Source: a virus
IMG/VR virus record: IMGVR_UViG_3300035181_001974
Length of the DNA: 64,000 nt
Reading direction: 5' to 3' (one strand)
In this document: piece by piece, positions 1 to 35,105 of the stretch
Layout of the letters: the number at the start of each line of letters is the position of its first letter
How positions within the stretch are numbered: the stretch's first letter is position 1
Made by a program: the position numbers and the translations under genes
The notes under the pieces: model-generated
What the model was told of the DNA's origin: nothing
Seen by the model: only the letters and a program-made list of their open reading frames with translations
Database searches by the model: none

Positions 1-27
1 TGTTCTCTGACAATCTACGTTCCAAAT

Positions 28-99
28 CCCTGAGTAGCTCAAGCTCGAGCGCCGGCCGCCTTAGGTCGGATATGACGGTATCGAATCCGTCCTCGGGGG
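28..99 (+). tRNA. tRNA, anticodon unresolved by eye
   Basis: 7-bp acceptor CCCTGAG/CTCGGGG + GCCA, D-stem GCTC/GAGC, T-loop-like TATCGAA; preceded by conserved CGTTCCA motif. Confidence 0.3.
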
Positions 100-105
100 C
101 CACAT

Positions 106-176
106 TCCGGTATCGTTCAACGGGAGGACGTCTAGCTGTTTACTAGATCATCGAGGTTCGAATCCTTGTGCCGGAG
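106..176 (+). tRNA. tRNA-Asn(GTT)-like (anticodon loop CTGTTTA, pyrimidine at 37)
   Basis: acceptor TCCGGTA/TGCCGGA, D GTTC..GGAC, anticodon stem TCTAG/CTAGA, T-arm GAGGTTCGAATCC, CCA encoded. Confidence 0.45.
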
Positions 177-180
177 CCAT

Positions 181-266
181 TGCGTCGTAGCACAACCGTA
201 AAGCCGGAGAGGCAGTGCACTCGACTGTTAATCGAGGGGATGAGGGTTCGACTCCTTCCGACGCAG
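181..266 (+). tRNA. tRNA with canonical Asn loop CTGTTAA (GTT) and a 21-nt D-loop insertion (86 nt)
   Basis: perfect acceptor TGCGTCG/CGACGCA, D-stem GCAC/GTGC enclosing hairpin GCCGGAGAGGC, anticodon stem CTCGA/TCGAG, T-arm GAGGGTTCGACTCCTTC. Confidence 0.4.
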
Positions 267-288
267 CCAGATCCTTTGGGATCATCAT

Positions 289-372
289 TCACAGGTAGCC
301 TAGTGGCCAGGCAGCGGGCTGTTAACCCGTAACGGTGAAAGCCTAACGCGGGTTCGAATCCTGCCCTGTGAG
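289..372 (+). tRNA. tRNA, GTT-type anticodon loop CTGTTAA, 19-nt variable region (atypical)
   Basis: acceptor TCACAGG/CCTGTGA, anticodon stem GCGGG/CCCGT, T-arm GCGGGTTCGAATCCTGC, CCA encoded. Confidence 0.35.
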
Positions 373-493
373 CCAGCCGTCAGCAAGACAAACCGCAGAC
401 TCCGTAATCGTGGGAGCGGTAGCCTTGCGATGGCGCAGACATGAGAGCCCACGGAGCGACGGCCAAACTCTCAGCAGAACTTCCGTCGCAACC

Positions 494-570
494 TCGGTCC
501 GAGGTGTTACTGGTATTGCATAGCTCCCTCTTAAGGAGACAGGTGCGGGTTCGAATCCCGCCGGACCGAC
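494..570 (+). tRNA. tRNA, anticodon loop CTCTTAA (CTT-like), irregular
   Basis: acceptor TCGGTCC/GGACCGA, T-arm GCGGGTTCGAATCCCGC. Confidence 0.3.
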
Positions 571-631
571 CGATCGAATAGTAACCACTCAACACGACAC
601 ATGAAGTCGAAGGTGAGGTTCGATCATTCAT

Positions 632-706
632 GCGCTTGTAGCTCAGTGGAACCAGAGCAACTAGTTCTTACCTAGAAGGTCGTGGGTTCGAATCCCACCA
701 GACGCA
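632..706 (+). tRNA. tRNA-Lys(CTT)
   Basis: GCGCTTG TA GCTC AGTGG..GAGC, anticodon stem CTAG/CTAG, loop TTCTTAC, T-arm GTGGGTTCGAATCCCAC. Confidence 0.6.
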
Positions 707-753
707 CTAAGTCAGTGTACACGTTCTAGCGGACAGGGTACAGTGACGGTCAC

Positions 754-825
754 GGGGAGGTAGCTCAGTGAAAGAGCGCCGGCAGAATAAGCCGGGGGTC
801 GTAGGTTCAAGTCCTGCCCTCCCCA
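754..825 (+). tRNA. tRNA, non-canonical anticodon loop AGAATAA (AAT; Ile-like?)
   Basis: perfect acceptor GGGGAGG/CCTCCCC, D GCTC/GAGC, anticodon stem CCGGC/GCCGG, T-arm GTAGGTTCAAGTCCTGC, CCA encoded. Confidence 0.45.
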
Positions 826-829
826 CCAT

Positions 830-902
830 GTGCGAGTAGCTCAGGCAGAAGAGCACCAAGGATTATCCTTGGGGGTCGGTGGTTCAACTCCACCCTCGCG
901 CA
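830..902 (+). tRNA. tRNA, anticodon loop GATTATC (positions 34-36 = TTA; A at 33); possible UUA-anticodon tRNA
   Basis: acceptor GTGCGAG/CTCGCGC, D GCTC AGGCAGAA GAGC, anticodon stem CCAAG/CTTGG, T-arm GGTGGTTCAACTCCACC, CCA encoded. Confidence 0.4.
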
Positions 903-924
903 CCAGTCACAGCAAGTAACCAAA

Positions 925-992
925 TGCGAGTGTGATGGTAGCACAGCAGGCTTTGAACCTGCAAGACCTCGGTTCGAATCCGGGGGTAGCAG
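925..992 (+). tRNA. tRNA-like, anticodon loop CTTTGAA (TTG, Gln-like), short D region
   Basis: anticodon stem GCAGG/CCTGC perfect; T-arm CTCGGTTCGAATCCGGG; acceptor only 5/7 paired. Confidence 0.3.
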
Positions 993-1009
993 GTGAAAGG
1001 TGTGATATT

Positions 1010-1081
1010 GGGTCCGTAACTCAAGTGGAAGAGACCAGTCTTTTAAACTGGCGCGTGGGGTTTCGATTACCTCCGGACCCA
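1010..1081 (+). tRNA. tRNA-Lys(TTT)
   Basis: perfect acceptor GGGTCCG/CGGACCC, anticodon stem CCAGT/ACTGG, loop CTTTTAA, T-loop TTCGATT. Confidence 0.55.
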
Positions 1082-1095
1082 CCTAGATAGATCAT

Positions 1096-1167
1096 AGCGG
1101 GATAGAGCAGCGGTAGCTTGCTAGGCTCATAACCTAGAGGTCGGCGGTTCGATTCCGTCTCCCGCTA
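1096..1167 (+). tRNA. tRNA-Met(CAT) (elongator or Ile-lysidine type)
   Basis: AGCGGGA TA GAGC AGCGGTA GCTT, anticodon stem CTAGG/CCTAG, loop CTCATAA, T-arm CGGCGGTTCGATTCCGTC, CCA encoded. Confidence 0.55.
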
Positions 1168-1189
1168 CCAGTATTAGATTGACCCGGAG

Positions 1190-1273: not shown

Positions 1274-2032
1274 ATGGCAATCGTCATCACGGTAGGTAGG
1301 CTTAGGACGCTGCTCGAGATCCTCATCCGCGAAGGTGAGGCGATCGATGCTGATAAGTCCAAGGAACTGTTGAAGAAGTTCCCAAAGGGCATGGCCAAGT
1401 TGGGTCTCAACGTCAACAAGATCGATTCACTGCCTGTTCTCGGAACGGGAACGCGTGGAACCGCCTTGGACATCGGCGGGGGCAAGGTCCTGAAGGTGAC
1501 CAATGACGACAAGGAGGCTGAGGCAGCCTCGGCGCTGGTAGGTAAGGACATCAAGAACGTCGTTCACTTCTACGCGGTGTGGCGCTTTGGCGACACGGGA
1601 TTTTTCGGAATCCTGCAGGAAAAGTTGCAACCGCTTCCGAAGGACGAGGCCAAGGCCTTCAATAACGCTCTTGTTGCCACGGGTCTACCAATCTGGATCA
1701 AGCGAGCCGAGGGCTCTTGGGACAATGCCAAGAAGTTGACGAAGGAGTTTATCGTCTCTCAAGTCAAGAAGAAGTACGGCGGCAACCTGAACTCGCCAGA
1801 GGCTCAAGAGTTCGTCAAGGACATCAACAGCAAGTGGAATGCGCTGGTCACCAAGTACGGTCTCCGCGACATGTTCAACACGCTGACGGAACTCGGCATC
1901 GACTTTCACGACTACCATGCGGGCAATATGATGACCCGTGACGATGGGACGCTGGTCCTGATTGATCTTGGCATGTCGAACGTTCGTGGTGGCGGTAAGA
2001 TCAACACGATCACGGAGAGACGCAAGAAGTGA
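1274..2032 (+). CDS. protein-kinase-like (eukaryotic-like kinase / aminoglycoside phosphotransferase fold) protein
   Basis: 252-aa ORF; Gly-rich loop GTGTRGTALDIGGGK, Lys in VLKV, catalytic-loop-like HDYHAGNMM and LIDLG resembling HxDxxxxN...DFG. Confidence 0.5.
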   Translation: MAIVITVGRLRTLLEILIREGEAIDADKSKELLKKFPKGMAKLGLNVNKIDSLPVLGTGTRGTALDIGGGKVLKVTNDDKEAEAASALVGKDIKNVVHFYAVWRFGDTGFFGILQEKLQPLPKDEAKAFNNALVATGLPIWIKRAEGSWDNAKKLTKEFIVSQVKKKYGGNLNSPEAQEFVKDINSKWNALVTKYGLRDMFNTLTELGIDFHDYHAGNMMTRDDGTLVLIDLGMSNVRGGGKINTITERRKK

Positions 2033-2225: not shown

Positions 2226-2298
2226 GGGGCACTAGCTCAGTTGGAAGAGCGCTTGCACGGCATGCAAGAGGTGATGGGTTCGAATCCCTTGTGCTCCA
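2226..2298 (+). tRNA. tRNA-Ala(GGC) (loop ACGGCAT, C at 33)
   Basis: acceptor GGGGCAC/GTGCTCC with G3:U70 Ala identity pair, D GCTC AGTTGGAA GAGC, T-arm TGGGTTCGAATCCCT, CCA encoded. Confidence 0.5.
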
Positions 2299-2381
2299 CC
2301 AAGATGGAATAGTGATGATCAGACCCGGCCACCGGACAAACGCCTCTCAGGTCAAAGTTCATCGTAAAAATCCTATTTCAT

Positions 2382-2454
2382 GGGGCTGTAGCTCAGTTGG
2401 GAGAGCGCCTCGTTCGCAACGAGGAGGTAGAGGGTTCGAATCCCTTCAGCTCCA
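2382..2454 (+). tRNA. tRNA-Ala(CGC)
   Basis: GGGGCTG/CAGCTCC with G3:U70, anticodon stem CCTCG/CGAGG, loop TTCGCAA, T-arm GAGGGTTCGAATCCCTT. Confidence 0.65.
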
Positions 2455-2583
2455 CCGTAGCCAGTAACCGTTTGGGCAGAGGGCGCCTTTTGCAGGTGAA
2501 AGCCGAATCTTGGGTGTAGATCGATAAAAAGGCCCTCGATCTAATCATTGGTGAAGTATCTTCAAAGACACCCGAGAACATTT

Positions 2584-2656
2584 GGGGCTGTAGCTCAACT
2601 GGGAGAGCGCCTGCCTTGCACGCAGGAGGTCGTGGGTTCGAATCCCATCAGCTCCA
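2584..2656 (+). tRNA. tRNA-Ala(TGC)
   Basis: GGGGCTG/CAGCTCC with G3:U70, anticodon stem CCTGC/GCAGG, loop CTTGCAC, T-arm GTGGGTTCGAATCCCAT. Confidence 0.65.
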
Positions 2657-2890
2657 CCGACGCTTCACAGCGTGGTAAGCTCGAATAGGCACGGGTTGAA
2701 CAGGACATCTGACCGGTGGTGTACCACCGCATTGATGATCATTTCACGAAGGCTGAATGAATTTGTCACGTCGGGTACGCTGTGATGGGGTGCGCATGTA
2801 ACCGCCTGAGCCGGGCTAAACACTCGGAAGGTGAATGCGAGAACGAACTAATGACCCCGACGCGAAGCTCAGCGTGATCGGGTTTTCTTG

Positions 2891-2960
2891 GAGGCGTGGG
2901 CCACTGGAGGCCACTCCCCTGTCTAGGGAATGTACGCGGGTTCGAATCCCGTCGTCTCCG
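2891..2960 (+). tRNA. tRNA-Asp(GTC)-like (loop CTGTCTA, T at 37)
   Basis: acceptor GGAGGCG/CGTCTCC, D GGCC/GGCC, T-arm GCGGGTTCGAATCCCGT, CCA encoded. Confidence 0.45.
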
Positions 2961-2980
2961 CCAAGTTCTTCATTCATCAT

Positions 2981-3052
2981 GCCGGCGTCGTTCAGTGGCT
3001 AGGACGCCGCGCTGTCTACCCGGAAACGGGGTTCGAATCCCCCTCGCCGGTG
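2981..3052 (+). tRNA. tRNA-Asp(GTC)-like, second copy (loop CTGTCTA)
   Basis: acceptor GCCGGCG/CGCCGGT, D GTTC AGTGGCTA GGAC, T-arm GGGGTTCGAATCCCC, CCA encoded. Confidence 0.45.
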
Positions 3053-3076
3053 CCAAGATACGTCTTCTCAGTTCAC

Positions 3077-3150
3077 AGGGGTGTGATGTTCAACGGCTAG
3101 CATGGCCGCCTCCAAAACGGCTCGTCTCGGTTCGAATCCGAGCACCCCTG
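3077..3150 (+). tRNA. tRNA-Trp(CCA)
   Basis: perfect acceptor AGGGGTG/CACCCCT, anticodon loop CTCCAAA, T-arm TCGGTTCGAATCCGAG, CCA encoded. Confidence 0.5.
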
Positions 3151-3155
3151 CCAGT

Positions 3156-3250
3156 CACCGTGTTTGAGGAAAGTTGTGAGGTTCACAGAATCTTACCACG
3201 CGAAAGCGAATGCGGCTGCTATCGCAACGTCTGTTCGATCCAGACCACGG
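3156..3250 (+). tRNA. long (class II-like) tRNA-like gene, anticodon unresolved
   Basis: acceptor CACCGTG/CACGGTG, T-arm GTCTGTTCGATCCAGAC; about 94 nt. Confidence 0.25.
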
Positions 3251-3260
3251 TGACGCTTAT

Positions 3261-3333
3261 TGTCCGGTCGTCTAAATGGGAGGACCCTACGCTCTGAACG
3301 TAGAAAATCCAGGTTCGAATCCTGGGCGGGCAG
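3261..3333 (+). tRNA. tRNA-Gln(CTG)
   Basis: anticodon stem CTACG/CGTAG, loop CTCTGAA, Glu/Gln-type D-arm TCGTCTAAATGGGAGGAC, T-arm CCAGGTTCGAATCCTGG, 3' ..GCAGCCA. Confidence 0.55.
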
Positions 3334-3349
3334 CCATAAATGTAAACAT

Positions 3350-3421
3350 TGGGAGATCATTCAGCGGCAAGGATGGCAGACTTTGACTCTGCTCACGGTG
3401 GTTCGAATCCACCTCTCCCAG
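3350..3421 (+). tRNA. tRNA-Gln(TTG)
   Basis: perfect acceptor TGGGAGA/TCTCCCA, anticodon stem GCAGA/TCTGC, loop CTTTGAC, T-arm GGTGGTTCGAATCCACC, CCA encoded. Confidence 0.55.
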
Positions 3422-3513
3422 CCATCCCGAGAATATTCGGGACAATTGGAACGTAGGTTACAGCCACGTTGATCGATCGTCTATACCAGGCAGGACAAGG
3501 CAGCATGAATCAT

Positions 3514-3585
3514 TCAGGGGTCGTCTAACGGCAGGACCTTCCGCTTTGAACGGAAAAAATGTGGGTTCGAATCCCACTCCCTGAT
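3514..3585 (+). tRNA. tRNA-Gln(TTG)-like, second copy (loop CTTTGAA)
   Basis: acceptor TCAGGGG/TCCCTGA, D-arm TCGTCTAACGGCAGGAC, anticodon stem TTCCG/CGGAA, T-arm GTGGGTTCGAATCCCAC, CCA encoded. Confidence 0.45.
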
Positions 3586-3849
3586 CCAAACCGCTTGAAC
3601 TGAGTTGTGTTTCGAACTAAGTTCGAACACGTAAAACATGAGTTTGTGTGAAAAGTGTCAGAATCCCCATGATGGGTCGTATGGATCGGGTAGATTCTGT
3701 TCTATCAAGTGTGCTTGTGGATTCACGACATCACACGTACGTTCAGAATTGTCACTCTCAAACTAAGACTTTTGCGGCAAGAATATTGTTCACAAAAGAC
3801 AGTCGACCAGCCAGTGAACACCAGCCCGTCTCCGTAGTATGATGGGCGC

Positions 3850-26400: not shown

Positions 26401-26417
26401 CAAGTGAAAATTCATGC

Positions 26418-26489: not shown

Positions 26490-26496
26490 ATTGAAG

Positions 26497-26588: not shown

Positions 26589-26803
26589 TGTACACCCTCT
26601 GACGAGGGTGGTAAGGTAGCATTATGCAATTTTCCAAGCTTGTCAGGGTGGCAACTGTCGCAACACTTACGGCCGCAGCTGTTGCAGCGGTGGTCTTCAT
26701 CGTCAAGAAGGTCAAGGCAGCGTCCGAGAAATCTAACAGCTGAAGTTTGCGACCCTTCGGGTGATCGCAGGGTCCGCCGGACTCCCCAAAAAGTCCGGTC
26801 TAT

Positions 26804-26877
26804 GGTGGGCGTGGTATAGTGGTTCTGCACGTCAGGTTGTGGCCCTGAAGGTGGGGGTTCGAATCCCCTCGCTCACC
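26804..26877 (+). tRNA. tRNA-His(GTG)
   Basis: extra 5' G (G-1) pairing with discriminator C73, acceptor GTGGGCG/CGCTCAC, anticodon stem TCAGG/CCTGA, loop TTGTGGC, T-arm GGGGGTTCGAATCCCC. Confidence 0.5.
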
Positions 26878-27053
26878 CTGTGCAACTCGATCGAATATCG
26901 AAGTTGTCGATAAATAGATCGTGTTTCATTACGTCTACTGCATCGAAAATCTCGTTTAACGGAAAGGTCTACGTCGGGAAACACTCGTCTGATGATCTCG
27001 ATGATGGGTGCATGGGTAGTGGTAAGTTGCTAACACGTGCAATCGCCAAGTAT

Positions 27054-27125
27054 GGCCCCATCGACCAGTGGCTAAGTCGCCTGGCTTTCAACCAGGAGAA
27101 GCGGGATCGAAACCCGCTGGGGTCA
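27054..27125 (+). tRNA. tRNA-Glu(TTC)
   Basis: acceptor GGCCCCA/TGGGGTC, 3-bp D-stem GAC/GTC, anticodon stem CCTGG/CCAGG, loop CTTTCAA, T-arm GCGGGATCGAAACCCGC, CCA encoded. Confidence 0.55.
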
Positions 27126-27260
27126 CCAAGCATTAGTTACGTCGCCGTGGAGGAATTAGGCAGACGCGCTAGTCTCAGACCCTAGTTAGGGTAACTTCTC
27201 TAGGCAGGTCCGATCCCCTGTCATCGACACCAGAATTGACTCGAGAATATTCAACGTAAT

Positions 27261-27343
27261 GCCAGTGTGGTGGAACCAGGCAGACACAGCGGTCTCAAAA
27301 ACCGCCGCCCACAAGCGTGAGGGTTCGAATCCCTCCACTGGCA
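27261..27343 (+). tRNA. tRNA-Leu(CAA), class II
   Basis: perfect acceptor GCCAGTG/CACTGGC, D GTG GAACCAGGCAGA CAC, anticodon stem GCGGT/ACCGC, loop CTCAAAA, long variable arm, T-arm GAGGGTTCGAATCCCTC, CCA encoded. Confidence 0.55.
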
Positions 27344-27363
27344 CCAGAAACGTAAGTAACTCA

Positions 27364-27440
27364 TGAGACGTAGCTCAGTCTGGTAGAGCAGGTGGTGTCC
27401 AACTACTGGGTCGTCGGTTCGAATCCGATCGTGAAGGTGA
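27364..27440 (+). tRNA. tRNA-like gene with canonical D-arm but unpaired acceptor, unresolved
   Basis: TAGCTCAGTCTGGTAGAGCA D-arm, T-arm GTCGGTTCGAATCCGAT; no complementary acceptor strands found. Confidence 0.2.
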
Positions 27441-27548
27441 AGCGTTTCAACCTTTGAGGTGGGGACAGGTAACTGTCAACCAAGAGGAATGATCGTCCAC
27501 CCGCTTAGGGTGAACAAACCCGGTTTACGACTCACCTCACTAAATCAT

Positions 27549-27621
27549 GCGCCCGTAGCCTAGTGGATGAGGCACTTGTCTACGAAACAAGTTTACGTAG
27601 GTTCAAATCCTGCCGGGCGCG
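27549..27621 (+). tRNA. tRNA-Arg(ACG)
   Basis: perfect acceptor GCGCCCG/CGGGCGC, D GCC TAGTGGATGA GGC, anticodon stem CTTGT/ACAAG, loop CTACGAA, T-arm GTAGGTTCAAATCCTGC, CCA encoded. Confidence 0.65.
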
Positions 27622-27739
27622 CCAGCAAGTAACCACTGGCTCGGGTGAAACTCCCAGGATGGCAGCAAGTGCTGTTATCGGCGGTGTCCACCAGCACAGG
27701 TCATGGAGACCTGTGGGTGAACGCTTGGCTGAAGAAAAG

Positions 27740-27920
27740 TCTGATTAGATCGGGACTTAAGAAAATGAGTGTGAAGAGTGCGGATTCCCAGAATAGAGAG
27801 GAAACATCTCTGCGTTCATGTTGATCATGTGAACCGGAATCCACGGGATCACAGGCTTGAAAATTTTCGCATGCTGTGTCCCAATTGCCACAGTCAAACA
27901 CCTACCTACTGCGGTAGAAA
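27740..27920 (+). pseudogene. frameshifted remnant of an HNH (homing-type) endonuclease
   Basis: CEECG zinc-finger motif in one frame followed in a different frame by HVDHVNRNPRDHRLENFRMLCPNCH (HNH core); stops interrupt both frames. Confidence 0.4.
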
Positions 27921-27921
27921 T

Positions 27922-28001
27922 GCCAGAGTGGTGGAACGGCAGACACACTCCGTTTAGAGCGGAGCGCCAAAAGCGTGCGGGTTCAAATCCCGCCTCTGGT
28001 A
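27922..28001 (+). tRNA. tRNA-Leu(TAG), class II
   Basis: acceptor GCCAGAG/CTCTGGT, D GTG GAACGGCAGA CAC, anticodon stem CTCCG/CGGAG, loop TTTAGAG, variable arm, T-arm GCGGGTTCAAATCCCGC, CCA encoded. Confidence 0.55.
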
Positions 28002-28059
28002 CCAGAATGAAGAGATCTTCGTAGAAGTAACCACTCGAGTTGGGTTGGCGCGTGATGCC

Positions 28060-28150
28060 CACCCCCTGTAGGTGAGCGCAGGTTGGCCTCCCAATGGCTC
28101 AGCGGCAACAGCACCCATCTCATACGTGGGGAATCGTGGATTCGAGTCCC
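28060..28150 (+). tRNA. tRNA-like element, unresolved
   Basis: T-arm-like CGTGGATTCGAGTCCCA; acceptor not resolved; preceded by AGTAACCA motif. Confidence 0.2.
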
Positions 28151-28246
28151 ATCTCAACAGGAACCATCATGACAGACTGATCTCTCTTCAACGTCCAGGC
28201 TCTACGTGAGGGTCAGACGGTCAAGTTTCGCCCACACGGGAACAGT

Positions 28247-28480
28247 ATGGTCCCGCGGATCTGCAGCGGGCAGCTGGTCACGGTCGCCCCTGTCACGGAC
28301 GAAACGTTGGTCGAGGTTGACGACGTTGTCCTGTGCAAGGTCAACGGCATCCAGATGCTTCACAAGGTGTCAGCTATCGGCAGCGATGGTCGCTACCAGA
28401 TCAGCAACAATCACGGCCACATCAACGGTTGGTGCACGAGGAAGACCGTCTTCGGCATCCTCGTTGCCGTGGAGGACTAA
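28247..28480 (+). CDS. hypothetical small protein upstream of prfB
   Basis: 77-aa ORF. Confidence 0.4.
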   Translation: MVPRICSGQLVTVAPVTDETLVEVDDVVLCKVNGIQMLHKVSAIGSDGRYQISNNHGHINGWCTRKTVFGILVAVED

Positions 28481-28481
28481 C

Positions 28482-29151
28482 ATGGAAACTGTCATCATCG
28501 AGATCAGGGCCGCCGAGGGCGGCGAGGACGCAAGACTTCTCGTTCAGGAGCAGCTCCGGGCATACGCCAACGCGGCGGCCCGGAGGGGTCTTTGAGGCGA
28601 CTGTAATCGATGATCGACCAGGGATGGTGATGCTCTCTGTCTCCGGCCCAGGAACCCTGCAGACCTTTGCAAATGAAGGCGGCGGGCACAGGTGGCAGCG
28701 CGTTCCACCGACAGAAAAGCGTGGTCGTGTGCAAACGTCGACAGTGACGGTCGCGGTCTTAAACCCAGACACCGTCATCGGCCAGGCACTAGACCCCCGT
28801 GATGTGGAAATCACCACTGCCCGAGGCTCGGGTCCGGGCGGCCAAAATCGCAACAAGACAGAGTCGTGCGTCATCGCGGTCCACAAGCCCACCGGCTTTC
28901 AGGTTCGCATTGACAACGAGCGCTCGCAGCACCAGAACCGGGCGATGGCCTTCAAGGTCTTGGCCGCTCGCCTCTACGAGGCTGAGTCTGAACGGCTCTA
29001 CCGCGAGCGCTCCAACGAGCGCAAGCAACAGGTGGGCTCAGGTCAGCGCGGCGACAAGGTACGAACCTACCGGACACAGGACGACCTGGTCACTGACCAT
29101 AGGACAGGTCAGAAGTACAACCTGTCGAAGTGGCTCAAGGGTGACTGGTGA
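28482..29151 (+). CDS. prfB: peptide chain release factor 2 (prfB) with +1 programmed ribosomal frameshift; coding as join(28482..28592,28594..29151)
   Basis: N-terminal METVIIEIRAAEGGEDARL (PCRF) ending at in-frame TGA inside GGAGGGG-T-CTT-TGA-G (SD-like + CUU UGA shift site); +1 frame continues FEATVIDDR..., universal GGQ motif in RGSGPGGQNRNKTESC, RSQHQNR. Confidence 0.85.
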
Positions 29152-29192: not shown

Positions 29193-29654
29193 GTGTCAGC
29201 AAAGATCGACAGGTTCATCAATGAGTTCGCGTTCTTGTCGAACTTTCATCCATCCACCATCATCGTCGACGGCCGGCATTATGCCACGGTTGAGCATGCC
29301 TATCAGGCTGCCAAGACCCTAGACGAGACGCAACGTGAGATGGTGCGCAAGTCGAAGACGGCGGCCGAGGCCAAGAAGCTCGGCCGCTCTGTCACCCTCC
29401 GCGAGGATTGGGACCAGGTCAAGGTCGACTTGATGCGAAAGTTCGTCAAGGCCAAGTTCGAGAACCCGCTGCTCCGCGAGATGTTGCTGGCGACTGAGGA
29501 TGCTGAGCTCATCGAGGGCAACCACTGGAACGATAAGTTTTGGGGCGTTTGTCGCGGGCAGGGACAGAATTGGTTGGGTCGTATCTTGCAGGAGGTTCGT
29601 GATGAAATCAGGGCCGAAGTTGATGCAGAGTCAGCCCTCGATGACATTCCCTGA
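29193..29654 (+). CDS. NADAR (YbiA/DUF1768) family protein
   Basis: GTG start with GGAGG RBS; FLSNFHPS..HYATVEHAYQAAK..NHWNDKFWGV, a strong YbiA/NADAR signature. Confidence 0.75.
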   Translation: MSAKIDRFINEFAFLSNFHPSTIIVDGRHYATVEHAYQAAKTLDETQREMVRKSKTAAEAKKLGRSVTLREDWDQVKVDLMRKFVKAKFENPLLREMLLATEDAELIEGNHWNDKFWGVCRGQGQNWLGRILQEVRDEIRAEVDAESALDDIP

Positions 29655-30207: not shown

Positions 30208-30290
30208 CGCGGTCGTGGCGGAATGGCAGACGCGCTGGTTTCAGGTACCAGTGGGGCAATACCTGTGTGGGTTCAAGTCCCACCGACCGT
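30208..30290 (+). tRNA. tRNA-Leu(CAG), class II
   Basis: acceptor GCGGTCG/CGACCGT, D GCG GAATGGCAGA CGC, anticodon stem CTGGT/ACCAG, loop TTCAGGT, variable arm, T-arm TGGGTTCAAGTCCCA, CCA encoded. Confidence 0.55.
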
Positions 30291-30315
30291 ACCAATCAAC
30301 GGTAACCTACAGCCA

Positions 30316-30388
30316 GTTAGACATCGAGTGGAGCAATGGTAGCTTACCTGACTTGTACTCAGGGGGTTGCAGGTTCGATTCCTGCCTC
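30316..30388 (+). tRNA. tRNA-like, anticodon loop CTTGTAC (TGT), weak acceptor
   Basis: D GAGC AATGGTA GCTT, anticodon stem CCTGA/TCAGG, T-arm GCAGGTTCGATTCCTGC; acceptor 5/7. Confidence 0.3.
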
Positions 30389-30429
30389 GAATGAAGGTGA
30401 AGTTGATTGAACAGTGACGTGCGCACAAT

Positions 30430-30505
30430 TAGTAACCATCGATGGTGTATGGGTTAACACACCGGGCTCGTGATCCGGGGCAGCAGGTTCGAATCCTGCA
30501 TCAGG
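30430..30505 (+). tRNA. tRNA-like, anticodon loop CTCGTGA (CGT), acceptor unpaired
   Basis: D GTGT ATGGGTTA ACAC, anticodon stem CCGGG/TCCGG, T-arm GCAGGTTCGAATCCTGC. Confidence 0.25.
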
Positions 30506-30574
30506 TGAAGCACGTTTGACACGAGAAAGATCGCATGACTTCCACCAAAGGAGGCTATCACGTTAGCAAGAATT

Positions 30575-30648
30575 TCTCCCCGTAGCTCAGCGGATCAGAG
30601 CGCGTGTCTCCGAAGCACGAGGTCGTGGGTTCAAATCCCACCGGGGAG
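30575..30648 (+). tRNA. tRNA-Arg(CCG)
   Basis: perfect acceptor CTCCCCG/CGGGGAG, D GCTC AGCGGATCA GAGC, anticodon stem CGTGT/GCACG, loop CTCCGAA, T-arm GTGGGTTCAAATCCCAC, CCA encoded. Confidence 0.6.
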
Positions 30649-30656
30649 GCCAACTA

Positions 30657-30733
30657 TGCCGCTGTATCCCCTCGGTTTCCTAAACCGTTGAAAGGGTAGC
30701 TGGATGCACGTGGGTTCGAATCCCTCCAGCGGT
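30657..30733 (+). tRNA. atypical tRNA-Arg(CCT)-like: no D-arm at normal position, 22-nt region after anticodon arm
   Basis: acceptor GCCGCTG/CAGCGGT + GCCA, anticodon hairpin CGGT TTCCTAA ACCG, segment TTGAAAGGGTAGCTGGATGCAC, T-arm GTGGGTTCGAATCCCTC. Confidence 0.35.
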
Positions 30734-30743
30734 GCCACCATCA

Positions 30744-30818
30744 CGCCCCCGTATGCCGCGTGCCTTCGAAGCACGAGAAAGCTAACGGACACATGCAGGT
30801 TCGAATCCTGTCGGGGGT
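30744..30818 (+). tRNA. atypical tRNA-Arg(TCG)-like: 5 nt between position 9 and anticodon stem, 18-nt post-anticodon region
   Basis: acceptor GCCCCCG/CGGGGGT + GCCA, anticodon arm CGTGC CTTCGAA GCACG (near-identical to Arg(CCG) at 30575), segment AGAAAGCTAACGGACAC, T-arm GCAGGTTCGAATCCTGT. Confidence 0.35.
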
Positions 30819-30825
30819 GCCATCA

Positions 30826-30902
30826 TGCCCCTGTATCGACTCTGCCTTCTAAGCAGGTGAAATCGTAATTGGACACATGCGAGTTCGACTCTCGCCAGGG
30901 GT
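30826..30902 (+). tRNA. atypical tRNA-Arg(TCT)-like, same architecture
   Basis: acceptor GCCCCTG/CAGGGGT + GCCA, anticodon arm TCTGC CTTCTAA GCAGG, segment TGAAATCGTAATTGGACAC, T-arm GCGAGTTCGACTCTCGC. Confidence 0.35.
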
Positions 30903-31065
30903 GCCAGTGTAACTCGAGCGGTCGGTATGGTATCTTGAATCAAGAGGCCACGCATGGCGAAGGCAAAAGCGATTTCCGGTCGTCTCCTAAGAATGGAACG
31001 AGTTTGAACGAGGTTGGAGCTGTCGCCCTGACGGGGCCACGCTTCACCTGACCGAGGCAGACCAC

Positions 31066-31790: not shown

Positions 31791-31948
31791 ACTGAACCTC
31801 GAACTTCCGATACTTATCAAGGCCGGTTATGCGCCCGCAAGACCTATCAACTCCCAAGACGCGCAAGCGTCCGAGATTCGGCGAAGAGCCGAGGGGGAAG
31901 CCCGTGCCGAAAGGCACGAGACCGATCCTTGACAAGCCGGAGGACACC

Positions 31949-32335
31949 ATGAGTGACGTGAAGCAGGTCATCGTCGTACGAAAGGACCTGAACATGAAAA
32001 AGGGCAAATTGGCCGCCCAGGTCGCCCATGCTTCGATGAAGTTTCTCGTTGACAACAACGAAGCGCAACGTGGAGACGAGGTCGTCATCAAGCTGACACC
32101 CGCAGAGGCCACATGGTTGTCGGGTTCCTTCACCAAGATCGTGGTGGGTGTGGATTCGGAAGATGCCTTGAAGGACCTCATCTTCAAGGCAGAAATTGAG
32201 GACGTCGAGGTGCATCCCATCATCGACGCCGGAAGGACAGAGTTCAATGGAGTTCCGACATTGACTTGTGCAGCCTTCGGACCATGCGAGGGTGCGCTGC
32301 TCGACAGGATCACAGGTAACCTGAAGTTGATTTGA
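31949..32335 (+). CDS. peptidyl-tRNA hydrolase, PTH2 family
   Basis: KQVIVVRKDLNMKKGKLAAQVAHASMKF and IDAGRTEFNGVPTLTCAAFGP match the PTH2 signature; RBS GGAGG. Confidence 0.7.
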   Translation: MSDVKQVIVVRKDLNMKKGKLAAQVAHASMKFLVDNNEAQRGDEVVIKLTPAEATWLSGSFTKIVVGVDSEDALKDLIFKAEIEDVEVHPIIDAGRTEFNGVPTLTCAAFGPCEGALLDRITGNLKLI

Positions 32336-32364
32336 GGCGAGCGGGGGTGCTATCCCCCGCAATC

Positions 32365-32447
32365 GGAGCATAGTTCAGCGGTAGAATGCCTGGTTTACAC
32401 CCAGGAGGCCCATAGGGTTCACGGGGGTTCGAATCCCTCTGCTCCGA
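32365..32447 (+). tRNA. tRNA-Val(TAC)-like with long variable region
   Basis: acceptor CGGAGCA/TGCTCCG, D GTTC AGCGGTA GAAT, anticodon stem CCTGG/CCAGG, loop TTTACAC, T-arm GGGGGTTCGAATCCCTC. Confidence 0.4.
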
Positions 32448-32460
32448 CCCGAACGAACTT

Positions 32461-32547
32461 GGAAGCGTGCGAGAGTGGTTTATTCGACCGGTTTGCTAAA
32501 CCGGAGGGTTTGAAAGGGCCTCGGGGGTTCGAATCCCCCCGCTTCCG
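32461..32547 (+). tRNA. tRNA-Ser(GCT), class II
   Basis: perfect acceptor GGAAGCG/CGCTTCC, anticodon stem CCGGT/ACCGG, loop TTGCTAA, long variable arm, T-arm GGGGGTTCGAATCCCCC, CCA encoded. Confidence 0.55.
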
Positions 32548-32552
32548 CCATC

Positions 32553-32804
32553 ATGCAGACGATTTGTCCCAACTGCCGTCATGAGGTCATTGCCAACTCG
32601 GCACCCGTGCGTGGGCTAAGCAATGACGGGACCGAGATTTGGCTGTGCCTCAAATGCCCAGTCATTGTCTGCGGAAATCCCATCGATCTCGGGAATGGTA
32701 ACAGCGTTCCTTGCTATGCAAGCCACCTCGAGAAGGCCCATCCAGAAGTCTATGGCCTCAAACCTGGGCCCACGAAAGGTGGCAAGAAAAATAAGAAAAA
32801 GTAG
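32553..32804 (+). CDS. small zinc-ribbon protein (paralog 1); ends at TAG
   Basis: CPNCRH...CLKCPVIVC...basic tail GGKKNKKK. Confidence 0.45.
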   Translation: MQTICPNCRHEVIANSAPVRGLSNDGTEIWLCLKCPVIVCGNPIDLGNGNSVPCYASHLEKAHPEVYGLKPGPTKGGKKNKKK

Positions 32805-32818
32805 AGTGTGGTATATTG

Positions 32819-32899
32819 GAGGATTGGTAGAGTGGTTTATTCGACCGGTTTGCTAGACCGAAGGGTCTGCAAGGATCATGGGTTCAAATCCCCGCTTCC
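32819..32899 (+). tRNA. degenerate second copy of tRNA-Ser(GCT) (possible pseudo-tRNA)
   Basis: anticodon arm CCGGT TTGCTAG ACCGA, 3' strand CGCTTCCGCC retained, 5' acceptor strand diverged (GGAGGAT). Confidence 0.3.
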
Positions 32900-32904
32900 G
32901 CCGG

Positions 32905-33105
32905 ATGATCATTCCCTGTCCAAGCTGTAGTTCGAAGGTTGAATTAAAGAGAGTGCGTCCGTCCGCTGGCACGCCTCTGACACGTCAGAAGTGTGGATCT
33001 GCATCAAGTGTGCAGTGATCGTCTGCATCGATTGTTACCACGAACACTCACGAAAAAAGCACCCGGAGACGGTGAACGAAATCAAGAAGCCGAAGAAGAA
33101 GTGAC
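32905..33105 (+). pseudogene. zinc-ribbon protein paralog 2, needs a -1 frame change near 32975 to align with paralog 1
   Basis: MIIPCPSCSSKVELKRVRPSAGTP in one frame, SDTSEVWICIKCAVIVCIDCYHEHSRKKHPETVNEIKKPKKK in the -1 frame. Confidence 0.35.
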
Positions 33106-33107
33106 TT

Positions 33108-33194
33108 GGAAGGTTTGGGCATTGGCAGGCCCATCGGTCTTGAAAACCGACATAGGTGATGAGCCTATTGCGAGTTCGACTCTCGCACCTTCCG
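33108..33194 (+). tRNA. tRNA-Ser(TGA), class II
   Basis: acceptor GGAAGGT/ACCTTCC, anticodon stem TCGGT/ACCGA, loop CTTGAAA, long variable arm, T-arm GCGAGTTCGACTCTCGC. Confidence 0.5.
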
Positions 33195-33244
33195 CAAGTT
33201 AGAACAGGCGCTTTACACCATTTACATGCAAAGCATGATTCTAA

Positions 33245-33472
33245 ATGCCTCAATGTGATTATGGATGTGGCAACGAAGGAGTGAAATTCTTCATAAGCAC
33301 AAAACGCTGGTGTTGCAACACTAGTGTCAATGCATGTCCCGCTAAGAAAGAACGAGATGCTTCACATAAACGAGGCAAGAATCCCCTTGAGGGTCGTGAA
33401 CATCCACGCGGAATCTTAGGAAAGAAAAGTTGGAGTCACGGGCAGACAACTTCTCCCGAAGTGCGCGAGTAA
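33245..33472 (+). CDS. Cys-rich hypothetical protein inside a low-GC insert
   Basis: 75-aa ORF CDYGCGNEG...WCCNTSVNAC in a visibly AT-richer about 450-bp segment. Confidence 0.25.
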   Translation: MPQCDYGCGNEGVKFFISTKRWCCNTSVNACPAKKERDASHKRGKNPLEGREHPRGILGKKSWSHGQTTSPEVRE

Positions 33473-33582
33473 ATTAGGATAGCACTCACGAATAATCTTA
33501 ATTGTCGTGGCATAGCCTCCTCTCCTGAAAAGGATGTCGTTCGACGACAACGTATTCGTGAAGCAGCTAAACGTGACGGAAA

Positions 33583-33657
33583 TATTGGAGGTTATCGCAA
33601 AGGTAGCGGGGAGGGCCCCAAGGGTTCGAATTCCTCCTCTTCCGCCATAGTTACTGG
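33583..33657 (+). tRNA. tRNA-like gene, unresolved
   Basis: T-arm-like AAGGGTTCGAATTCC and 3' CTTCCGCCA end; 5' half not resolved. Confidence 0.2.
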
Positions 33658-33659
33658 AC

Positions 33660-34043
33660 ATGAAGATTACCCTTGGCAAACTGAGGAACCTCATTAAAGA
33701 GGTTGTCTTGGCAGAATCGTATCCGACTTGGGATAAGTCGACCCGTAAGCAGCAGATTGAGCCTGAGCCTGAGTATTCGGACCTCTACGACGAAGAAGGC
33801 TACGATTACATGGATGATGACATCGTGGAGCCTCCTCTAGAGAATCCTCCGCTCGATGGTGAAGTCTCGCCCGAAGAACCCGCGAGCCCGTATGAGGACA
33901 TGGACCCACCCACCAGGATCCCGTTGAAGGGCGGCGATGAGGTTGATGCTCTGACCGGATGGAAGAATATGTTGAAGTGGAAGCCTGGTCAGCGCGCGGC
34001 AGCAAAGAACTCATACAACCGACGTTTGAGGCGAGCAGGTTGA
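33660..34043 (+). CDS. hypothetical protein, paralog family (N-terminus MKITLGKLRNLIKEVV), acidic middle
   Basis: 127-aa ORF; N-terminal 17 aa resemble ORF 25370..25756. Confidence 0.45.
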   Translation: MKITLGKLRNLIKEVVLAESYPTWDKSTRKQQIEPEPEYSDLYDEEGYDYMDDDIVEPPLENPPLDGEVSPEEPASPYEDMDPPTRIPLKGGDEVDALTGWKNMLKWKPGQRAAAKNSYNRRLRRAG

Positions 34044-34057
34044 GGGACGCAGGTTAC

Positions 34058-34129
34058 AATAGCACAGTGCAGGTGTAGTTCAGTAGTAGAACATCTCGTT
34101 GCCAATGAGATGGTCGTGGGTTTGAATTT
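34058..34129 (+). tRNA. tRNA-Gly(GCC)-like with weak, AT-rich T-stem
   Basis: perfect acceptor GCAGGTG/CACCTGC, D GTTC AGTAGTA GAAC, anticodon stem TCTCG/TGAGA, loop TTGCCAA, T-loop TTTGAAT, CCA encoded. Confidence 0.4.
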
Positions 34130-34153
34130 TATCACCTGCTCCAAAATTCAAGT

Positions 34154-34224
34154 GCGGGTCTGGTATAGTGGTTGTGCCCTAGCCTTCCAAGCTAGAGAGA
34201 TCGGTTCGATTCCGGTGACCCGCT
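34154..34224 (+). tRNA. tRNA-Gly(TCC)
   Basis: perfect acceptor GCGGGTC/GACCCGC, anticodon stem CTAGC/GCTAG, loop CTTCCAA, T-arm ATCGGTTCGATTCCGGT, CCA encoded. Confidence 0.55.
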
Positions 34225-34368
34225 CCAGCAAGTAATCACCACCAAGGCCGTCCCCAATGGCCTACATGTGAAAGCTTTTGTGATCGTGGCGTAGTGGTAT
34301 CGTACCACCGACGATCTAGGGCTATCGATGACATCGATGGCGACGAATGTTTTTCTGTGAAGAAAGTC

Positions 34369-34986
34369 ATGAAATCATATCCCTCAATCCCCTACGCCAC
34401 CGAGTGCCGAGTCCCAATCGTCGCCTTCGACAAGCTCGACGGGTCCAACGTCCGCGCCGAGTGGTCGCGCAAAAAAGGCTTCTACAAGTTCGGCACCCGC
34501 ACGCGGCTAGTGGACGCATCCGATCCTGTCTTCGGTAAGGTGCCCGGACTGATCAACGACAAGTACGGCAAGGGCATCGACGAGGTGCTCAAGGAATCGA
34601 AGTGGGTCTCGGCCTGCTGCTTCTTCGAATTTTGGGGGCCCAATAGTGCCTTCGGCATGCACGACCTCAAGGAAGACCAGACGGTAACCCTGATCGACGT
34701 GGCGCCCTTCGGCGCCGGCATTCTGGAGCCTGAGCTCTACCTGAAGTTGTTTGGTCACCTCGACCACGCCAAGGTCTTGTACGAAGGCGAAGTGACGGAA
34801 GCCTTCATAGAGAGCGTTCGGGACGGTTCGCTGCCCGGCATGACCTTTGAAGGCGTCGTCTGCAAAGGCAAGAACGACAAGAAAACCAAGGCACCCGTGA
34901 TGTTCAAGCAGAAGTCGCGGGCCTGGTTCGACAAGCTGAAGGCTTACTGCGGCGACAATAACGAGTTGTTCCGGACTCTACGGTAA
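34369..34986 (+). CDS. small nucleotidyltransferase-superfamily RNA ligase-like protein (KxDG)
   Basis: motif I FDKLDGSNVRAEW, downstream EFWGPNS and EGVVCKGKNDKK (motif IV/V-like); true start likely ATG 34369 (MKSYPSIPY). Confidence 0.55.
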   Translation: MKSYPSIPYATECRVPIVAFDKLDGSNVRAEWSRKKGFYKFGTRTRLVDASDPVFGKVPGLINDKYGKGIDEVLKESKWVSACCFFEFWGPNSAFGMHDLKEDQTVTLIDVAPFGAGILEPELYLKLFGHLDHAKVLYEGEVTEAFIESVRDGSLPGMTFEGVVCKGKNDKKTKAPVMFKQKSRAWFDKLKAYCGDNNELFRTLR

Positions 34987-34994
34987 CATAACAA

Positions 34995-35067
34995 CCGCCC
35001 GGGTCGGAGTGGTCCTCCGAGCGCGTCTTATAAGCGCGCCAAGCCGGTTCAATTCCGGACGGTCGGA
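34995..35067 (+). tRNA. tRNA with anticodon loop CTTATAA (TAT; Ile-UAU-like)
   Basis: acceptor CCGCCCG/CGGTCGG (6/7), D TCGG AGTGGTCCT CCGA, anticodon stem CGCGT/GCGCG, T-arm GCCGGTTCAATTCCGGA. Confidence 0.4.
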
Positions 35068-35105
35068 CCGTTGAAGTACACGTGGGCATGGAGTAGAATC
35101 ATCCC

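Follow-up and report, generated by a model that had tools for sequence, protein, structure and literature searches.

Phages are known to carry large sets of transfer RNA (tRNA) genes. Huge phages encode up to 67 tRNAs per genome, plus RF1/RF2 release factors (Al-Shayeb et al. 2020, PMC7162821), and cluster BE Streptomyces phages carry 43-48 tRNAs together with a transfer-messenger RNA (tmRNA) (PMC5764925). It has been proposed that phage tRNAs evade anticodon nucleases via loop mutations (van den Berg et al. 2023, PMC10264068; also PMC11555353 and PMC11464382). Non-canonical tRNAs have been described as well, including D-armless mitochondrial tRNA-Ser(AGY) (PMC9427863), the allo-tRNAs and (8/4) tRNA-Ser and tRNA-His of bacteria and phages (Mukai et al. 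2017, PMC5389517), and permuted tRNA genes of the red-alga type. Here we analyze a window of 64,000 nucleotides (nt) from IMG/VR virus record IMGVR_UViG_3300035181_001974, in which positions 1-35,070 form an island of tRNA genes. The island adds one more example to the large phage tRNA sets already known. The new result is a class of arginine and isoleucine tRNA genes with a re-wired core, to which three 'difficult' arginine genes of the island led.

The re-wired arginine and isoleucine tRNA class

The three genes, for Arg-CCU, Arg-UCG, and Arg-UCU, directly follow an Arg-CCG gene. Each has a perfect acceptor stem of 7 base pairs (bp), the discriminator G73, a normal T arm, and a textbook anticodon hairpin. 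The D hairpin is missing: the acceptor stem is followed by just UAU and 4 nt before the anticodon stem begins, and a stretch of ~20 nt lies between the anticodon and T arms. We rejected canonical cloverleaf, intron-containing, and permuted versions of these genes because there is no alternative anticodon hairpin and the two ends pair in the normal way.

Scanning IMG/VR with an exact pattern yielded 20 further sequences, and 22 sequences were aligned. A descriptor search gave a background of 0.2 matches in shuffled sequence. These align readily and support four helices, among them a new 3-bp helix in which the three nt after UAU pair with the three nt after a conserved GAAA. Overall, 96.8% of alignment cells are paired and 17 of the 20 pairs show double changes, values that none of 500 shuffles reached and no slid register came near. 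The new helix varies among CG (11), GC (7), AU (3), and GU (1). We built a covariance model, R1, on the re-wired structure from this alignment. Members in this first set score 80-95 bits, and members overall score at least 55 bits versus at most 37 bits for canonical tRNAs. The model also detects members outside its building set (loci L002, L034, and L035). Of the 36 sequences first searched with the model, 27 had the re-wired architecture.

We avoided circularity in a second IMG/VR scan by using a pattern from the 5' part only. At least 120 stretches matched, and all 80 of the loci fetched from them hold a model hit, at 55-93 bits. The class recurs in at least 88 other phage sequences. Base-pair covariation is demonstrated across the 83 distinct sequences among the matches listed: pairing holds in 94.4% of cells, and covariation is seen at 19 of 20 pairs. 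Every one of these sequences pairs fully in the new helix (100%), with an outer pair of CG in 49, AU in 22, GC in 9, and UA in 3. The anticodon stem has four Watson-Crick pairs, since its outermost position is in most cases a U-U mismatch. When species genomes of bacteria and archaea (185,579 in all) were scanned with the first pattern, it occurred at only 6 places; two of these have the architecture, both on tRNA-packed contigs of metagenome-assembled genomes (MAGs).

In E. coli, A20 is the main determinant of arginyl-tRNA synthetase (ArgRS) recognition outside the anticodon, and A73 is a determinant for isoleucyl-tRNA synthetase (IleRS). The anticodons of the 83 listed sequences are UAU (33), GAU (14), UCU (15), ACG (15), UCG (4), and CCU (2), which belong solely to Ile and Arg. 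The segment after the new helix is U-A-A-Y-U-G-G-N-N-A-C-A-U (also given as UAAYUGG[A/U]NAC AU). By its letters, this segment is the D-loop consensus (A14 R15 Y16 Y17 G18 G19 N20 .. A21) followed by three nt ending in a U able to pair with A15. Among the matches listed, GG is followed by A in all but one of the Arg members (35 of 36) and by U in most Ile members (44 of 47), and the discriminator is A in 47 of 47 Ile members. These counts show co-variation of identity nucleotides with the anticodon.

We propose that the core is connected as follows. After U8-A9-U, the 3-bp helix would directly enclose the anticodon arm, with the GAAA linker closing the helix. The D-loop consensus (A14 R15 Y16 Y17 G18 G19 A20 .. 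A21) plus CAU comes next and runs into the T arm. Such a molecule would equal a canonical tRNA with three strand connections permuted: 7->22, 43->10, and 21->49. All helices and the D loop could then sit in their usual places, and the L-shape and the identity elements could be kept. This three-dimensional equivalence is deduced from canonical tRNA geometry rather than from a computed model. We lend about equal belief and disbelief to the full claim that the class is a natural and functional tRNA topology, restricted to Arg and Ile, with the anticodon arm nested in the D stem by these three connections, charged by ordinary ArgRS and IleRS, and overlooked by annotation tools.

The same elements could instead be decoys or sponges that bind host tRNA-targeting enzymes and take no part in decoding. 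They do retain the acceptor/T minihelix and the anticodon loop, and the window holds other tRNA-like elements with invariant loops and poor acceptor stems, such as a CCGG-CAGAAAA-CCGG hairpin. However, the re-wired genes also keep a perfect 7-bp acceptor, a discriminator, often an encoded CCA, and the nucleotides that direct ArgRS or IleRS, and they occupy otherwise empty anticodon slots, which makes a decoy role improbable. A canonical tRNA with the same anticodon was found in the same fetched locus for just 6 of 96 re-wired genes, although these loci are partial. In two relatives of the window (L001 and L002), Arg-UCU orthologues of the re-wired design are at the corresponding position, and a third (L003) has there a canonical Arg-UCU gene with an acceptor sequence identical to that of the re-wired gene. 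Judged by position and acceptor sequence, the re-wired Arg-UCU takes the slot of canonical Arg-UCU within this clade.

The proposed topology is distinct from those of the known non-canonical tRNAs. Mitochondrial tRNA-Ser(AGY) likewise lacks a D hairpin after its acceptor stem and has an extended anticodon branch. Unlike it, the phage class still has the full D-loop consensus, G18 G19 included, now located 3' of the anticodon arm. Its T arm is normal, it occurs in phages, and it decodes Arg or Ile. Allo-tRNAs are also metagenomic, non-canonical, located in phage tRNA clusters, and frequently of anticodon UAU. They have an 8/4 or 9/3 split between the acceptor and T stems and long variable arms, whereas the re-wired class has a 7/5 split with both stems covarying, and it is the D and anticodon connectivity that has changed. 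A permuted gene of the red-alga type encodes its 3' half ahead of its 5' half, and its ends are made after circularization. In contrast, the two ends of a re-wired gene form an ordinary acceptor stem, and a discriminator and often CCA are present.

The class would be overlooked because ARAGORN cannot see it and tools based on covariance models score it near threshold. ARAGORN detects 0 of the 83 listed sequences, even at a 90% threshold, and the Rfam tRNA model gives marginal scores of 29-36.5 bits to 7 of the 15 members checked, with the rest below threshold. BLAST located the element in cultured Streptomyces phages (Yaboi, Stanimal, Mildred21, Braelyn, Persimmon, and others) and in the cultured Microbacterium phages A3Wally and Zooman. 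Most BLAST matches have no annotated feature beneath them; six records overlap a protein-coding feature only, and none overlaps a tRNA. In Yaboi, A3Wally, and Mildred21, the model hit (79-86 bits) falls in an unannotated gap inside the tRNA cluster. The genes are Arg-CCU in Yaboi (NC_048730.1, 91004-91080) and Arg-ACG in both Mildred21 (NC_042008.1, 94857-94933) and A3Wally (MZ150783.1, 93609-93685). Yaboi and Mildred21 are cluster BE phages, siphoviruses of ~131 kb that are unrelated to the phage of the window, and their re-wired gene is an Arg gene.

Two neighboring observations came from the fetched loci. On an unrelated viral contig with two re-wired tRNAs (L065), a GOLLD RNA (6036-6505, - strand, 159.5 bits) lies beside the tRNA cluster. 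Three Acidobacteriota MAGs (L031-L033) hold 20-33 tRNA-like genes in at most 8 kb that share the GGACACAUG-T-arm junction and are without the re-wired core. These arrays are probably the allo-tRNA polycistrons described for Acidobacteria.

Gene content and decoding capacity of the island

The window encodes baseplate wedge and gp25 homologues, a gp55-like late sigma factor, and a sigma-70 family factor, along with an ATP-dependent DNA ligase, RNA ligases of the T4 Rnl1 and Rnl2 types, a NAMPT homologue, and large tail-fiber-like open reading frames (ORFs). By this gene content, the window is DNA of an uncultured large T4-like phage, and the phage structural and T4-type genes rule out a bacterial chromosomal tRNA array. 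No near-identical DNA was found among 50,697 cultured phage records with 20 kb of the window as query, and one ORF of 929 amino acids (aa) had zero tblastn matches. The closest protein matches are 27-45% identical and belong to metagenomic huge phages and to Flavobacterium and Microcystis myophages. Huge and jumbo phages (PMC7162821) resemble the window in having dozens of tRNAs beside release factors and other translation genes. None is a close relative, however: huge-phage records are the best phage matches of the RF1-like protein at 39-45% identity, and the baseplate wedge reaches 29%.

Closer relatives exist in IMG/VR. The RF1-like gene (68-71% identity) identified three contigs with 33, 35, and 24 tRNAs in at most 20 kb, and the gene order around it in these relatives is the order of arrays 3-5 of the window. 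A kinase-like ORF identified four contigs with 17-21 tRNAs that match arrays 1-2. Loci L002 and L006 are on one 340,433-bp contig and jointly hold 56 ARAGORN tRNAs plus one re-wired Arg. The contigs of relatives reach 340 kb and 324 kb, and the window itself is 64 kb. The genes of the island and their conservation in relatives are thus demonstrated. Array 1 of the relatives opens with Ile-GAU and Tyr-GUA. Because the first letter of the window falls inside array 1, these two genes probably lie just upstream of it.

We counted tRNA genes with ARAGORN (default and lowered thresholds), Rfam RF00005, a custom covariance model, and hand reading of spacers. ARAGORN by default called 46 tRNA genes in the window, with 44 on the + strand between 106 and 34,227. 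On the - strand, it called 0 in 1-35,070 and 2, both with anticodon CUA, at 60,731-60,879. Its sole possible-pseudogene flag was at 24062-24157. The Rfam tRNA model at its gathering score also gave 46 matches, of which 25276-25346, 26346-26399, 27368-27432, and 30441-30503 were new relative to ARAGORN. Hence, 48 loci in 1-35,070 are backed by at least one detector at normal threshold (44 from ARAGORN and 4 from Rfam), and these score above detector thresholds as canonical cloverleaves (acceptor stem of 7 bp, T stem of 5 bp, T loop of the GTTCRA type). The three re-wired Arg genes score 83-94 bits with the dedicated covariance model. Lowered ARAGORN thresholds, sub-threshold Rfam scores, and hand reading contributed 11 more tRNA-like loci: 28-102, 181-269, 3154-3252, 25035-25110, 26144-26216, 26492-26584, 27141-27232, 28095-28152, 32817-32904, 33596-33650 (a 3' fragment), and 34995-35069. 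Encoded CCA was present in only 26 of the 44 ARAGORN-default genes.

The total comes to ~62 co-oriented loci in five arrays, of which, by appearance, about 50 are working tRNA genes and about a dozen are degenerate. Low scores need corroboration, as lowering ARAGORN to 85% of its threshold produced some dozen false calls within coding DNA, on the + and - strands alike. A T-arm descriptor matched 51 times in the arrays (+ strand), 7 times elsewhere on the + strand, and 14 times on the - strand, where 2 matches were real. An earlier note on this DNA had claimed roughly 55-60 tRNA or tRNA-like genes in five arrays, and our count bears this out, with one possible pseudogene flagged among the 44 ARAGORN genes. 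Nearly every item of its hand-made anticodon list was right. It was accurate for three Ala genes all with G3:U70, four Pro genes all with C1-G72, Arg (ACG, CCG, CCU, UCG, and UCU), three Asn-type genes, a UAU gene, Thr, Gln, Gly, Leu, Ser, Lys, Glu, Asp (two), Phe (two), His, Trp, Val (two), and Met, but it missed Cys-GCA (25798-25870) and the two CUA tRNAs.

A translation island combines phage context, dozens of tRNAs, and translation genes, and here we find at least 48 tRNAs, an RF1-like gene, two Pth2 genes, and a tRNA-binding-domain protein. The confident genes carry 33 anticodons that, by standard wobble, read 47 of 61 sense codons. Counted over 36 confident genes of the window, these make up 81% of codon occurrences. 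With the unusual genes included, 50 of 61 codons are read. Within the window there is no Ile-GAU, Tyr-GUA, Val-GAC, Leu-GAG, Ser-GGA/CGA, or Gly-CCC gene; most anticodons absent from the window are present in relatives. With 33 canonical anticodons and three re-wired Arg tRNAs in the window, the island would give the phage a nearly self-sufficient decoding set. Its co-oriented genes are presumably transcribed as polycistronic transcripts and would be processed by the host RNase P and CCA-adding enzyme. If its tRNAs are expressed and aminoacylated in this way, the most likely role of the island would be to keep phage translation running when the host pool fails, whether through tRNA-cleaving defenses or phage-induced shut-off. 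We favor, with moderate confidence, this reading of region 1-35,070 as the tRNA island of a large T4-like phage that sustains translation upon failure of the host tRNA pool and includes three Arg tRNAs with a re-wired core.

Codon usage could account for the island without any relation to defense, if the island serves codons that the phage uses more than its host or simply its preferred codons. The phage favors G/C-ending codons (AAG 85%, GAG 69%, CAG 71%, and ACG 39%), and C34 tRNAs cover preferred codons: Lys-CUU in two copies for AAG, Glu-CUC, Gln-CUG, Leu-CAG, Thr-CGU, Pro-CGG, and Ala-CGC. The number of tRNAs also grows with phage genome size in general (PMC7162821). Yet the rare codons AUA (3%), AGA (5%), GUA (6%), and CUA (7%) are served too, GUC has no tRNA in the window despite being the top Val codon (51%), and Gln-UUG is present in 2-3 copies though CAA makes up just 29%. 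Codon matching also leaves the conserved non-consensus loops, the ligases, and the re-wired cores unexplained. We regard it as possible but doubtful.

Companion genes are relevant to the favored role in sustaining translation. Only residues 99-271 of the RF1-like protein are homologous to RF1, and its first ~98 residues are unrelated to RF1. It is nearest RF1 among release factors, and the PrfH model also scores (83 bits). It may be a ribosome-rescue factor and not a general terminator. T4 repairs PrrC-cleaved tRNA-Lys with Pnkp and Rnl1. The window similarly has an Rnl1-family ligase and a second RNA ligase beside its tRNAs, and these RNA ligases would reseal cut tRNAs. It differs from T4 in its weak Rnl1 equivalog match (55 bits versus a cutoff of 242 bits) and in its missing Pnkp partner, considered below.

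The two CUA tRNAs are predicted amber suppressors, and one copy is kept in the closest relative (L037, 250-324). Together with the release factor gene inside the island and the rarity of TAG, which ends 2 of 37 confident genes and is the rarest stop, they could be signs of a phage in which some of the genome is decoded with TAG or another stop as an amino acid. Such recoding is highly improbable. Under the standard code the long structural genes are uninterrupted, and the encoded factor is of the RF1 type, which recognizes UAG, whereas TAG recoding would call for the reverse. We ruled out an alternative genetic code because large ORFs neither merge nor extend with TAG as sense; read-through leaves the largest ORFs at 1441 and 1163 codons. 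The TAG stop of a 102-aa ORF (55864-56172, - strand) directly precedes, in the same frame, the ATG that starts the gp55-like late sigma factor (55051-55863). Because the TAG abuts this in-frame ATG, amber suppression would fuse the two proteins.

Loop departures, decaying loci, and the case for the island

Among 45 seven-nt anticodon loops in the window, four have a nucleotide other than U33 and four have U37. The non-U33 genes are 754-828 (G33), 830-905 (A33, also U37), and 2226-2301 and 24966-25038 (both C33). U37 also occurs at 106-179, 2890-2963, and 2981-3055, and 24062-24157 has an 8-nt loop. All other canonical loops have 7 nt, U33, and a purine at 37. The unusual T-loops TGCAAGT and TGCAACT are at 24599 and 25084, respectively. 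All of the peculiarities noted earlier (pyrimidine 37, non-U33, and these T-loops) were thereby located in window genes.

Many departures are shared with relatives. The ACGGCAU loop of Ala-GGC (C33) is found in the window, L007, and L008, the CUGUCUA loop of Asp in the window, L006, and L007, and the CUGUUUA loop of Asn in the window and L006. The second Pro-UGG has UCUGGAR in the window and L002 and UCCGGAG in L001. T loops with G55 (UGCAAGU and UGCAACU) recur as well. In every orthologue pair with a shared odd loop, the stems have diverged. Non-U33 loops number 4 of 45 in the window, 24 of 144 in relatives (21 of them C33), and 38 of 716 among tRNAs of unrelated phage loci; most of them are C33. 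Because the odd loops recur in orthologous tRNAs of relatives, they are maintained rather than the result of random decay.

At the array 1 site of 754-905, the relatives (L006, 7879-9347; L007, 9210-9430) all hold 2-4 well-folded tRNA-like genes with aberrant loops. These loops have 6 or 8 nt or contain G33 or A33, for example AGAAUAA, GAUUAUC, and CGUUGAG.

The conserved odd loops fit the proposal of anticodon-nuclease evasion, with resistance itself being what we infer from them. The loop-mutated phage tRNAs described previously (PMC10264068) likewise come from a tRNA-rich phage with non-consensus loops and RNA ligases in the same genome, although here deviations were scored against the universal consensus (U33 and R37) and not against host sequence. 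By this logic, C33/U37 loops and non-canonical bodies would make the phage tRNAs poor substrates for host tRNA-targeting enzymes, which would be their benefit against host nucleases.

Other loci look different. The locus 28095-28152 is a homologue of the Met-CAU gene at 9148-9221 of L003 with its acceptor and T stems destroyed, 32817-32904 is a Ser-GCU copy with several broken stems, and 33596-33650 is the 3' half of a Ser gene alone, behind an AT-richer insert. The Ser-CGA-like locus 26492-26584 has an anticodon loop of 13 nt. For the other odd loci, BLAST against relatives gave almost nothing, and we assigned status from position and hand folding.

Such loci, together with the ARAGORN flag at 24062-24157, lend some plausibility to the idea that all odd loci, including the re-wired Arg and C33/U37 genes, are pseudogenes or functionless relics of tandem duplication. 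This is an unlikely explanation overall, and for the re-wired class it is effectively refuted by covariation. Compensatory changes occur in all four re-wired helices across the 83 distinct sequences, in fetched loci of 35-71% G+C. The re-wired anticodons are Arg or Ile only among the matches listed, and the identity nucleotide co-varies with the anticodon. The C33/U37 loops recur in orthologues with diverged stems.

Survival of host tRNA depletion or cleavage, which the earlier note had put forward as the strategy of this phage, is a reasonable and already published hypothesis that our results partly support. The set is very large and conserved in order, it covers ~81% of codon occurrences, it is accompanied by RF1-like, Pth2, ligase, and NADAR genes, and its odd loops are maintained. 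Several points weigh against this reading or against the re-wired class as we interpret it. The isoacceptor sets had been called complete, which is overstated given the anticodons listed above as missing from the window. The argument that tRNAs for G-ending codons go beyond codon compensation fails, since the phage strongly prefers these codons and its C34 tRNAs fit its own usage. No Pnkp-type kinase/phosphatase domain was found in the window ORFs scanned, although one may lie outside the window. An RF1-like factor and amber suppressors in one genome oppose each other at UAG. By their broken or missing stems, the Met locus, the Ser-GCU copy, and the Ser fragment are plain pseudogenes, and part of the island is junk because several tRNA-like loci are clearly decaying. 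Single-sequence folding of the re-wired genes was no better than that of shuffles (z of -1.1 to -1.7) and is uninformative. That re-wired genes fill anticodon slots instead of duplicating canonical genes is weakly suggested by fetched loci that are partial. Finally, we found no description of the re-wired class in the open-access literature, including a 2020 review of non-canonical tRNAs and the allo-tRNA paper, but an earlier description is possible.

Features of the window and wider meaning

As shown in Table 1, the five arrays are interspersed with translation and RNA repair genes, and a second translation-related cluster accompanies the CUA tRNAs. Small zinc-ribbon ORFs and one RNA ligase gene are interspersed in array 5.

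Table 1. Features of the window with their positions, strands, and supporting details.
Feature	Position	Strand	Details
tRNA array 1	28..1170	+	6-nt-loop tRNA-like (28-102), Asn-GUU with U37, Asn-GUU with 22-nt D-loop (181-269), Asn-GUU with long variable arm (289-375), Lys-CUU x2, two well-folded non-U33 genes AGAAUAA and GAUUAUC (754-905), truncated Gln-UUG, Lys-UUU, Met-CAU
ORF with weak kinase-like similarity, between arrays 1 and 2	1274..2032	+	Kept at equivalent place in relatives, 54-69% identity
tRNA array 2	2226..3588	+	Ala-GGC (C33), Ala-CGC, Ala-UGC, Asp-GUC x2 (U37), Trp-CCA, tRNA-like 3154-3252 (9-bp acceptor stem), Gln-CUG, Gln-UUG x2
tRNA array 3	23646..28152	+	18 ARAGORN-default genes: Glu, Pro x4, Val, Thr x3, Phe, Cys, Gly, His, Glu, Leu x2, Arg-ACG, others; extra loci: second Phe, second His (T-loop UGCAACU), Leu-CAG-like, Ser-CGA-like (13-nt loop), Leu-like CAGAAAA element, decayed Met 28095-28152
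RF1-like release factor	28333..29151	+	PxT (PPT) and GGQ motifs kept; 68-71% identity beside arrays in relatives
NADAR-domain protein	29193..29654	+	Domain match
tRNA array 4	30209..30906	+	Leu-CAG, Thr-UGU-like (5-bp acceptor stem), tRNA-like 30438-30506, Arg-CCG, then three re-wired Arg genes
Re-wired-core tRNA-Arg(CCU), encoded CCA	30658..30737	+	83.4 bits with own model; Rfam tRNA model 27.8 bits; no ARAGORN call
Re-wired-core tRNA-Arg(UCG), encoded CCA	30745..30822	+	86 bits with own model; neither Rfam nor ARAGORN call
Re-wired-core tRNA-Arg(UCU), encoded CCA	30827..30906	+	93.8 bits with own model; no ARAGORN call, no Rfam tRNA-model match
Peptidyl-tRNA hydrolase Pth2	31829..32335	+	Domain match
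tRNA array 5	32363..35069	+	Val-UAC with inserted long variable arm, Ser-GCU, decayed Ser-GCU copy, Ser-UGA, Ser 3' fragment 33596-33650, Gly-GCC, Gly-UCC, Ile-UAU-like 34995-35069
RNA ligase, nucleotidyltransferase family, 230 aa	34294..34986	+	PF09414, phrog_548
T4 Rnl1-type RNA ligase	36938..38209	+	PF09511 37 bits (cutoff 28.3); phrog_562 8e-36
Two tandem tRNA-CUA (putative amber suppressors)	60731..60879	-	ARAGORN and Rfam; one scores 126 in ARAGORN
Second translation-related cluster beside CUA tRNAs	60899..62399	-	HD-domain protein, tRNA-binding-domain protein, Pth2-like protein

Some array genes have unusual bodies. Asn-GUU at 289-375 has a long variable arm, with a counterpart in L009 (3538-3621, - strand). 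Derivation of this class-II-like GUU gene from tRNA-Tyr was ruled out by alignment (U1-A72, G73, and an Asn-like D arm), and by the same alignment it is an Asn tRNA with an inserted arm. Val-UAC at 32363-32450 has an 18-nt variable region, and the gene of relatives has a normal length of 73-74 nt. In array 5, tRNA-Ser(GCU) and a small zinc-ribbon ORF form a tandem unit in two copies (32461-33195 and 33196-33650), of which the second tRNA is decayed. The insert preceding the Ser 3' half is ~400 nt long and contains broken remnants of Cys-rich ORFs, which suggests a mobile element that landed in the Ser gene.

A Leu-like class II tRNA-shaped element between Thr-GGU and Gly-GCC is conserved in the window (26127-26225), L001 (6765-6858), and L003 (6590-6675). 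This is the element with the invariant CCGG-CAGAAAA-CCGG hairpin, which has A33 and is always directly followed by RAAGTGAAAGA. We found no consistent acceptor stem for it.

Repeats and short motifs also mark the arrays. A 25-nt direct repeat, TGTTCTCTGACAAYCTRCGTTCCAA, occurs in two copies (1-25 and 24036-24060), each just upstream of an aberrant tRNA-like gene (28-102 and 24062-24157, respectively), and the second unit is absent from relatives. Two spacer motifs are enriched: AGTAAYC, with 14 matches versus 6 expected, 10 of them in arrays and 4-22 nt past many tRNA 3' ends, and GGTGAAR, with 44 matches versus 18 expected. Example sites are 580, 915, 2463, 26118, 27628, 28026, 30431, and 34231 for the former and 26217, 27436, 30396, and 30504 for the latter. 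Both motifs also occur in the spacers of relatives; we sought pairing between the two and found none. Most array tRNA genes are preceded by CAT at -3 to -1.

The window and its relatives provide a comparative set at the level of a clade, in which departures at the most conserved tRNA positions (U33, purine 37, and psi55) are maintained in phages. These maintained departures are relevant to a debated question, namely whether survival of tRNA-targeting defenses is the reason that phages have tRNAs. The re-wired class is directly testable because it is present in cultured Streptomyces and Microbacterium phages, and its core could serve as a new scaffold for orthogonal tRNA engineering. If the re-wired tRNAs are functional, phage tRNA counts and anticodon repertoires are systematically under-reported, and the decoders affected, for Arg (AGA, AGG, and CGN) and Ile (AUA), are precisely the targets of codon-usage studies. 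Their function would also imply that cloverleaf connectivity is not obligatory for cytoplasmic-type translation.

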